Below, piece after piece: positions 2,640 to 3,122 of a stretch of 64,000 nt of DNA; positions within the stretch are counted from its first letter, which is position 1; each line of letters starts with the position of its first letter. Origin of the DNA: an uncultured Gammaproteobacteria bacterium (GTDB lineage Bacteria > Patescibacteriota > Patescibacteriia > UBA1558 > S5-K13). The position numbers and the translations under genes are program-made. The stretch lies in NCBI GenBank assembly GCA_964486685.1, contig CAZAOE010000003.1:5306-69305 (forward strand), in the 5' to 3' direction. The notes below the pieces were generated by a model that saw only the letters and a program-made list of their open reading frames with translations, was not told the DNA's origin and did not search any database.

Positions 2640-3122
2640 TTAACTGGGCCAAAAGGTTATCGCCAGCATAGTTCCAGAAATTAACAAGACCTTTAATATT
2701 AAAAAGGGGATTAAAAAACAACTCTTCAATTCGCTATCACTATTACCAGCAGCAACAATACCAGCGGCAATAACACCAACGGCAATAACACCAACGGTGG
2801 CAATGGCAATAACACCAACAATCCTAACACCAGCAACAATAGCAGTAGCAACTGCGGCAATAGCGGCAGCGATAACAACACCCGCGGTAACAACACCAAC
2901 TGCGGCAATAGCAACAAAACCAGCAAGAGCAACAACACCAGCAGCAACAACACCAGTGGCCACGGCAGTAGCAACAACAGCAAGAGATGCAGCACCAGTA
3001 GCCTCATATCGTTCTGCTCCAGTTAGTCCCCAGCCACCCTGAAGAGAAAAAACAGAGATAAATACAGTAATAGCTGTAATGATCATTATTATTTCCCATT
3101 TAAATAATCTTTTTTTATTCAT
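2640..3122 (-). CDS. hypothetical low-complexity Ala/Val/Gly/Ile/Thr-rich hydrophobic protein with N-terminal TM/signal anchor
   Basis: 160 aa; perfect AGGAGG 7 nt upstream of ATG (minus strand); DNA built from GCAATAACACCAAC-type repeats; locally GC-rich. Confidence 0.5.
   Translation of the reverse strand: MNKKRLFKWEIIMIITAITVFISVFSLQGGWGLTGAERYEATGAASLAVVATAVATGVVAAGVVALAGFVAIAAVGVVTAGVVIAAAIAAVATAIVAGVRIVGVIAIATVGVIAVGVIAAGIVAAGNSDSELKSCFLIPFLILKVLLISGTMLAITFWPS

Follow-up and report, generated by a model that had tools for sequence, protein, structure and literature searches.

The GGW-ERY family: small predicted membrane proteins with a repetitive Ala/Val/Gly core from uncultivated bacteria

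Introduction

The c subunits of ATP synthase and the V-type proteolipids (PF00137) are small, abundant membrane proteins whose helices are rich in Ala, Gly, Val and Ile and in which the C-terminal helix bears a carboxylate halfway along its length. A gene whose product resembles them in composition was analyzed here in a stretch of 64,000 nucleotides (nt), called the window below, which corresponds to positions 5,306 to 69,305 of contig CAZAOE010000003.1 (assembly GCA_964486685.1, assigned by GTDB to the Patescibacteriota). The gene occupies positions 2640..3122 on the minus strand, starts with ATG and, according to the open reading frame (ORF) call and homology, encodes a polytopic membrane protein of 160 amino acids (aa) from a family without a name, referred to as GGW-ERY. 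As in the proteolipids, its predicted helices are rich in small aliphatic residues and its abundance is predicted to be high, and a Glu is found in the middle of the last helix in most members. The end of that helix (..VE..V.FG.IS.ITFLL) also resembles a proteolipid C-terminus, that of NtpK. Nevertheless, the family differs from ATP-synthase c in lacking both an atp operon context and the GxGxGxG motif, and the ion-binding carboxylate is not invariant, as Lys takes its place in the window protein, and Gln or Thr does so in several members. None of 42 family members matched PF00137 at E<=0.1, and no c-ring chain appeared in a profile search of the PDB at E<=10.

Four other groups of proteins or genes invite comparison. 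The glycine-zipper or small-xxx-small proteins (GlsB/YeaQ/YmgE, PF04226) are likewise short, Gly/Ala-rich membrane proteins, but in the window protein the i,i+4 spacing is not enriched and the period is of five residues, arising from a 15-nt DNA repeat; neither the Pfam Gly-zipper families nor PF04226 matched the window protein (E<=1) or the 42 members (E<=0.1). Simple-sequence phase-variable genes resemble GGW-ERY in that part of the coding sequence is repetitive and, by slippage or recombination between direct repeats, has become longer in one close relative than in another, whereas in GGW-ERY the changes are of whole-codon blocks (for example, 93 nt) between repeats of 15-19 nt, so that the length of the protein is altered and the frame is not switched. 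Type I toxins, too, are hydrophobic, are encoded by genes that stand alone and are missed by annotation; like other small hydrophobic proteins, some of them reportedly occur in tandem copies. They are under about 60 aa long and consist of a single helix, whereas GGW-ERY proteins have 90-196 aa and three to five predicted helices (160 aa and five in the window protein), and the gene has a strong Shine-Dalgarno (SD) sequence and promoter and no evident antisense RNA. Finally, IFI6/IFI27 (ISG12) are Ala/Gly/Val-rich small polytopic membrane proteins without a clear function, but theirs is a eukaryotic family with no motif in common, and the sole link was a match at chance level (E = 5). The window protein is most like the proteolipids or other Ala/Gly-rich small membrane proteins, with a core that evolves like a simple-sequence tract, and it is an uncommon variant among small hydrophobic membrane proteins with simple-sequence cores.

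The reading favored here, which as a whole we consider probable, is that of a monocistronic gene with strong predicted expression signals for a small integral membrane protein of a narrow family, with an abundant structural role and a core prone to slippage.

Members and conserved plan of the family

It is very probable that 2640..3122 is a real gene and that it encodes an integral membrane protein of the GGW-ERY family. The full translation of the ORF (160 codons) is MNKKRLFKWEIIMIITAITVFISVFSLQGGWGLTGAERYEATGAASLAVVATAVATGVVAAGVVALAGFVAIAAVGVVTAGVVIAAAIAAVATAIVAGVRIVGVIAIATVGVIAVGVIAAGIVAAGNSDSELKSCFLIPFLILKVLLISGTMLAITFWPS. Apart from the window protein, a full-length word-indexed search gave a single protein, of 155 aa (40% identity); the family was nearly missed because low-complexity words saturated the candidate list. 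The contig of this relative (L001) carries two tandem paralogues, of 93 aa (L001a) and 155 aa (L001b), which have both ends in common and an Ala/Val/Gly middle of unequal length. Three further relatives were recovered with the 93-aa paralogue, which has little low complexity, as the query. When 1.84 billion representatives were then searched exhaustively with a profile, 47 proteins matched at E<=1e-3, and 15 of these also at E<=1e-10; almost all are 90-196 aa long and matched over their full length; the family size of about 47 refers to clusters at 50% identity. The window protein scored 174 bits (E = 1.8e-46) against the family profile, in which it was itself included, and 100.9 bits against model A3. 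A profile of the joined N- and C-terminal modules (A4) was discarded as not useful, since it recovered only two proteins.

Most members follow one plan. An M-K-K-L...E start leads into helix 1, which ends in F..FS and is followed by the loop (G/N)GW-x-L-x-G-x-ER(Y); after a hydrophobic stretch of variable length come a short linker of Lys, Asp, Glu and Asn and a last helix, SL.vE..vI....I.ITF(L), which forms the C-terminus. The window protein has every one of these elements. Its N-terminus, MNKKRLFKWEIIMIITAITVFISVFS, comprises a Lys/Arg-rich start and helix 1 (residues 3-27; 3042..3116, minus strand), in which E10, F21, F25 and S26 are conserved and F21 and F25 are nearly invariant. The signature loop GGWGLTGAERY follows at residues 29-39 (3006..3038), with G30 and W31 nearly invariant in the alignments. 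The Ala/Val/Gly/Ile/Thr core spans residues 42-126 (2745..2999) and is written in codons of the form G/A-N-T. It is followed by a polar linker, NSDSELKSC (residues 127-135; 2718..2744), for which the pattern in the family is D/N-K-E-L-K-x-x-F, and by the C-terminal helix FLIPFLILKVLLISGTMLAITFW (residues 136-158; 2649..2717), whose end, ...ITF(L) in the family, reads FLIPFLILKVLLISGTMLAITFWPS. The single deviation is K144, which occupies the mid-helix position held by Glu in most relatives.

The preliminary description of this DNA had placed an N-terminal hydrophobic helix before a GGWGLTG motif, as was indeed found (GGWGLTG, residues 29-35), and had reported a stretch of extreme Ala/Val/Gly/Ile/Thr content. 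The composition was confirmed, at 94% in the best 84-residue segment, compared with 0.55 in the real protein that ranks next and 0.39 as the median of 63 window ORFs, but the stretch measures about 85 residues and not the roughly 110 proposed. The polar linker, the C-terminal helix (136-158) and the terminator described below had been overlooked at the ends of the gene. An AxxxA/GxxxG-like periodicity had also been proposed and did not hold: 15 small-xxx-small (i,i+4) pairs were counted against 19.3 +/- 2.3 in 5000 shuffles, and the autocorrelation was -0.12 at lag 4 and +0.29 at lag 5, its sole peak. This lag-5 period exists because the 15-nt DNA repeat imposes it on the protein. A glycine-zipper or GxxxG periodicity was therefore rejected, as the i,i+4 spacing lies below the shuffled expectation.

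The assignment to the membrane was upheld by hydropathy, by predicted structure and by distant relatives. Hydropathy exceeded 1.7 across residues 50-115 and again at 140-150, a profile of the membrane-protein type. AlphaFold2 (AF2) models were built with an alignment of 42 family sequences. The window protein was modeled with helices at residues 3-27, 36-67, 72-95, 101-127 and 137-157 (mean predicted local distance difference test, pLDDT, 72; predicted template modeling score, pTM, 0.61), with a pLDDT of 86-92 for helix 1, 85-92 for helix 1 together with the loop, 56-69 for the core and 75 for the C-terminal helix. A less biased member, P0014 (141 aa), gave a similar arrangement (helices 3-26, 35-55, 59-77, 81-107 and 117-139; mean pLDDT 74, pTM 0.63), with values of 81-94 at the ends and 59-67 in the core. 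In distant members, Phe, Leu, Ile and Ser replace Ala, Val and Gly in the middle and hydrophobicity is kept, so it is the membrane character that is conserved and not the DNA repeat. The core is conserved in composition and hydrophobicity only, and not in sequence.

No consistent match for the window protein or the family was obtained in Pfam (E<=1 for the window protein, E<=0.1 for 42 members), NCBIfam, PHROGs or the defence models of PADLOC, and the best Foldseek hit among PDB folds had E = 2.5. Phage and plasmid records, IMG/VR viral contigs and the GTDB species representatives (including the contig CAZXCJ010000016.1 of a metagenome-assembled genome) contained no relative. By threonyl-tRNA synthetase, that genome is the nearest in GTDB to the window organism (80% aa and 86% nt identity); it is titled "uncultured Gammaproteobacteria bacterium", a label that may be wrong, and the matches ranking after it, in Peribacteria and Acidobacteria, reach no more than 47%. 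Across the family loci examined there was no conserved neighborhood or operon partner, and the neighbors varied by lineage: rmlD and rmlA in the window, and elsewhere VanZ with a tyrosine recombinase, murJ, adk, obg, and NosD-like and Band_7 genes. The window carries one copy of the family; pairs of tandem paralogues were present in L001 and in a second contig (L013), each copy with its own promoter and SD sequence. Taken together, these comparisons point to GGW-ERY as a real, previously unnamed family, narrowly distributed in uncultivated bacteria.

Two unusual arrangements were seen among the relatives. Positions 1088-2582 of L001 hold a tandem duplication, the unit of which consists of about 190 nt of the 3' end of VanZ, carrying the promoter, and a single family gene; three copies of the VanZ fragment (1088, 1637 and 2393) lie beside the tyrosine recombinase gene. 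Additionally, P0017 (90 aa) joins an acylphosphatase-like N-terminus to the C-terminal half of a family member like P0005, and has arisen either by recombination or as a chimera of the assembly. The window, too, has an acylphosphatase gene in the vicinity of gene 2640..3122, at 8435..8713.

Expression signals

A sigma-70-like promoter was found upstream of the gene at 3164..3192 on the minus strand, with TTGACA (3192..3187) separated by 17 nt from TAAATT (10 of 12 consensus matches). It is followed by the SD sequence AGGAGG (3129..3134), which stands six nt before the start codon (AGGAGG ACAGAA ATG). Downstream, 13 nt past the stop codon, the hairpin GCGCTGATTCTACGGTCAGCGC with a GC-rich stem of 9 bp and the T-run TTTTTTATTT resemble an intrinsic terminator (2595..2626, minus strand). 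Rfam at gathering thresholds gave no match in the region of the gene. The arrangement suggests that the gene is monocistronic, with its own near-consensus promoter, a consensus SD sequence and a terminator, and the expression signals are predicted from these three elements to be strong. The relatives agreed with the window gene in this respect, since a TTGACA-17/18-(TG)TATAAT-like promoter and AAGGAGG were present in the upstream regions of seven out of seven.

The rarity of a perfect AGGAGG in the window, remarked upon in the preliminary description, was confirmed by a crude scan, in which it preceded only 5 of about 70 ORFs; the spacer, given there as seven nt, has six. In a similarly crude scan of the window ORFs of at least 90 codons, an SD-like motif of at least 4 nt was not found before the first start codon in 62 of 70. 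The organism may therefore lean little on SD pairing, so that the few AGGAGG genes stand out.

One of the other strong SD sequences belongs to an ORF of 86 aa (58321..58581, plus strand), in the product of which the N-terminal helix, LLVGGLVGGIIAAIITLAGGGA, is rich in Gly, Ile, Leu and Ala and the tail is charged. Like gene 2640..3122, it is preceded by the -35 context ATTTGACAA (58252) and by AGGAGG-N6-ATG (58309), and it is presumably a second small membrane protein with strong predicted expression signals in the window.

Repeats, codon usage and length change in the core

The locally high GC content noted previously was verified, with values of 0.46-0.51 in the center of the ORF against a window average of 0.30. 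Tandem Repeats Finder detected periods of 15 and 18 in the DNA of the core. The 15-mer GGCAATAACACCAAC has three exact copies (2766, 2781 and 2805), two of them in tandem, against 0.05 expected, and one more copy with two mismatches; the degenerate repeat described earlier thus exists, with a unit of 15 nt (five codons) instead of 14. Otherwise the repeats of the window gene are short and mostly degenerate (60-77% identity), and the spacings between degenerate copies were multiples of three in 12 of 12 cases. No homopolymer or microsatellite of 1-8 nt was found in the repetitive tract, and the promoter contains no repeat tract. Both the composition of the core and its repeat are far beyond chance.

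The codons of the core are almost all pyrimidine-ending (GCT, GTT, GGT, ATT and ACT). Gly is encoded by GGT in 12/12 cases in the window core, Val by GTT in 22/23 and Ile by ATT in 9/10, compared with window-wide shares of 37% for GGA, 26% for GTA and 30% for ATA. The same bias was observed when the third positions of Ala, Val, Gly, Ile and Thr codons in 11 family genes, whose loci have 30-42% GC, were counted together: the core had T 82%, C 14%, A 2% and G 2%, and the flanks had T 47%, C 17%, A 31% and G 5%. The difference is large (Fisher p ~1e-31 for T and ~1e-39 for A), with the proviso that these p-values overstate independence, since the genes are related. In L001b, T occupied 79 of 79 core third positions. 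Because the bias stops at the boundaries of the core, gene-wide translational selection is not the explanation.

The core had been described as prone to changes in length, and clean in-frame insertions and deletions among close relatives bore this out. P0004 (122 aa) is P0005 (153 aa) minus exactly 93 nt between 19-nt direct repeats (TGCTGCTGTTGTTGCTGCT), plus one synonymous change, and in-frame indels in the core also separate P0033 from P0040, P0024 from P0034 and L001a from L001b. The core gains and loses whole blocks of codons between direct repeats, and the length of relatives varies from one sample to another. The further suggestion of a contingency gene, taken as on/off switching, was not supported, as all the indels seen and all the repeat spacings are multiples of three.

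Proposed structure and role

Under the favored reading, the N-terminus would stay in the cytoplasm, in keeping with the positive-inside rule, and the GGW/ERY loop would lie at the outer interface of the membrane, its conserved Trp, Arg and Tyr being typical interface residues. The core would form three helices of small residues, giving five helices in typical members and three in the short ones; the two forms would differ by one helical hairpin, which would leave the end helices oriented alike in both. Specific contacts might be made by these conserved helices and the loop, and the core might supply inert, tightly packing helices. At the DNA level, the (G/A)NT codon lattice would match itself at any shift of 3 nt, so that slippage or unequal recombination could repeatedly expand and remove the stretches with the highest self-similarity, and in this way renew the core in frame. 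This continual rebuilding would explain why third positions never drift to the A-rich usage of the genome. As for function, an abundant, self-associating structural membrane protein, "proteolipid-like" in behavior and not in homology, is tentatively proposed on the grounds that the core shows no constraint on its sequence, that the gene has no partner in an operon and that the expression signals are uniformly strong. An enzyme, a transporter or a toxin seems less likely.

Several observations weigh against this reading. The structural role was reached by exclusion. The lengths fall into a main group of 131-178 aa and a small one of 93-108 aa, but two intermediates of 122 and 125 aa, together with P0034 (72 aa, with almost no core), break a strict parity of three or five helices. 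The mid-helix Glu of the last helix is replaced by Lys in the window protein and by Gln or Thr in some relatives, and the confidence of AF2 in the core of the window protein is low (pLDDT 56-69). No length variant of the window allele was seen in two contigs from other samples, which were 100% identical over 6.7 and 3.0 kb; these were the two compared out of 13 on record carrying the window protein. Lastly, the codon bias of the core could result from selection instead of turnover: substitutions between near-identical allele pairs amounted to seven over all codon positions, too few to separate the two.

Selection is part of the least unlikely alternative, in which the core is an adaptive "hydrophobic ruler" or contingency locus. 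Slippage would often switch its length, so that membrane helices become more or fewer, or longer or shorter, and selection would have removed nearly all purine-ending codons, keeping the tract slippery and free of stops in the sense frames. The in-frame core indels between close relatives and between tandem paralogues would fit such a locus, as would the family-wide T/C bias restricted to the core and the exact 15-nt tandem repeats of the window gene. We consider it unlikely, given that the window allele was unchanged in the two contigs just mentioned, that its repeats are short and mostly degenerate, that no frameshifting variant was found among the relatives compared, and that passive turnover accounts for the indels without adaptive switching. 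Rather unlikely too is the related proposal of a selected and heritable "tunable hydrophobic module", in which the exclusion of purine-ending codons (A at 2% of third positions versus 31% in the flanks) would maintain a self-similar (G/A)NY lattice and permit in-frame gain and loss of membrane-helix hairpins. If true, it would alter the behavior of an abundant membrane or fusion-peptide-like protein in uncultivated, possibly episymbiotic, bacteria, and would place in-frame contingency variation on transmembrane mass and not on surface epitopes.

A second alternative gives a role to the DNA upstream of the gene, where a perfect palindrome with 10-bp arms, TTTGTCAAAT-N6-ATTTGACAAA, spans 3185..3210. 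Its right arm holds the -35 box TTGACA of the gene, and its left arm forms the -35-like box ATTTGACAA facing rmlA, with TTGACA (3203..3208), 17 nt and TAATGT on the plus strand; the same 9-mer points both ways. Such a palindrome is not very improbable by itself, since the window contains 27 perfect inverted repeats (at least 9 bp, spacer of at most 10) against 11.9 +/- 3.4 in random sequence of equal composition. The overlap with TTGACA had been reported before and was confirmed, the arms being slightly longer than described. A function as operator throughout the family was rejected, as the palindrome is absent upstream of all seven relatives examined. Back-to-back divergent -35 boxes would be its simplest reading, and a species-specific operator in the window species is possible.

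In the alternative in question, the product would be a membrane-permeabilizing peptide (a toxin, a holin-like pore or an amyloid or glycine-zipper channel), and a repressor would keep the gene silent by binding to the palindrome, which overlaps the -35 box. The protein is indeed very hydrophobic and rich in small and beta-branched residues, the family includes tandem paralogues, a trait it has in common with certain type I toxin loci, and PDB sequence searches, which gave no significant match, returned as their sole weak ones components of alpha-pore-forming toxins of the MakB type (E about 0.2). Nevertheless, this seems quite improbable. The i,i+4 periodicity of small residues falls below the shuffled level, and the relatives without the palindrome have unobstructed near-consensus promoters and strong SD sequences. 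The loci examined showed neither an antitoxin or immunity partner nor a conserved neighbor, PADLOC and PHROG provided no family match, and proteins of 90-196 aa with two conserved terminal helices are unlike type I toxins. The toxin, amyloid and surface-layer roles raised in the preliminary description were neither favored nor disfavored directly: the loci and models searched yielded no partner gene, no match to a defence or toxin model and no shared neighborhood.

A third alternative takes helix 1 as a cleaved signal peptide. The mature protein would start at the GGW loop, and its Ala/Val/Gly/Ile core, the composition of which resembles that of viral fusion peptides, would insert into another membrane, such as that of the host of an episymbiont. 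A Lys-rich n-region, an h-region of 16-18 residues and a conserved (V/I/A)-F-(S/T) that directly precedes the GGW loop are in line with this. No Cys of the lipobox kind follows helix 1; signal peptidase I might cut at V-F-S, which stands before LQGGW, but the would-be -1 site is Thr, Gly, Asp or Leu in many members, and AF2 packs helix 1 into the bundle with its highest confidence. The reading as a whole is considered very unlikely.

Coding strand

The preliminary description had taken the minus-strand ORF as the gene and had left room for the opposite strand, where the ORF 2797..3042 (plus strand) might be the one conserved in relatives. When this was examined, the antisense frame proved to be open in all relatives, which have 0-2 stops in it from one end of the gene to the other, and all six frames were nearly free of stops within the core. 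This openness is automatic and a by-product of composition, not evidence for an antisense gene: for an antisense stop to arise, the sense frame must have Tyr preceded by a codon ending in a pyrimidine, or His or Gln preceded by one ending in T, and Tyr, His and Gln codons are nearly absent. Wobble patterns or substitutions by codon position cannot separate the strands, because the third positions of both frames coincide. The promoter, SD sequence, ATG and terminator, as well as the relatives found, all support the minus strand. It is hence extremely improbable that the locus is a GC-rich simple repeat open by chance, or that the antisense ORF is the real gene, given that these signals exist for the sense frame only, that the antisense ORF leaves out most of the conserved, non-repetitive modules at the two ends, which match relatives in unrelated genomic contexts with E down to 1e-24, and that the antisense product has no family match.

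Implications

These results add a well-defined unnamed family of small membrane proteins, without a match in the curated libraries searched, to the pool of "hypothetical" proteins of uncultivated AT-rich bacteria. Genes of this kind are readily dismissed as low-complexity artefacts. Of broader interest, and testable, are the break in codon usage inside a single gene (31% of A-ending codons in the flanks versus 2% in the core) and the clean in-frame gain and loss of transmembrane sequence among close relatives. Should the length or the codon pattern of the core be under selection, the evolution of a simple sequence would, unusually, be shaping the membrane-embedded mass of a protein; if not, it would be a clear example of slippage holding a coding tract away from mutational equilibrium.

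Additional observations

The region 7187-8392 of L001 was called as an S-adenosylmethionine synthetase; its product matches Pfam families of intein splicing and of LAGLIDADG homing endonucleases.

In the window, GC-rich perfect hairpins are found in the AT-rich intergenic DNA at 1403-1423, 2411-2431, 2490-2560, 11055-11074, 26091-26114 and 30779-30802. Examples are CTCCCCCTAAATTAGGGGGAG and TCTCCCCTTACCAAGGGGAGA, and CCTGCCTGCCGGCAGGCAGG is present twice. The segment 2380-2640, between the convergent rmlD and gene 2640..3122, folds with z = -5.7. These hairpins may be terminators or copies of a dispersed repeat element.

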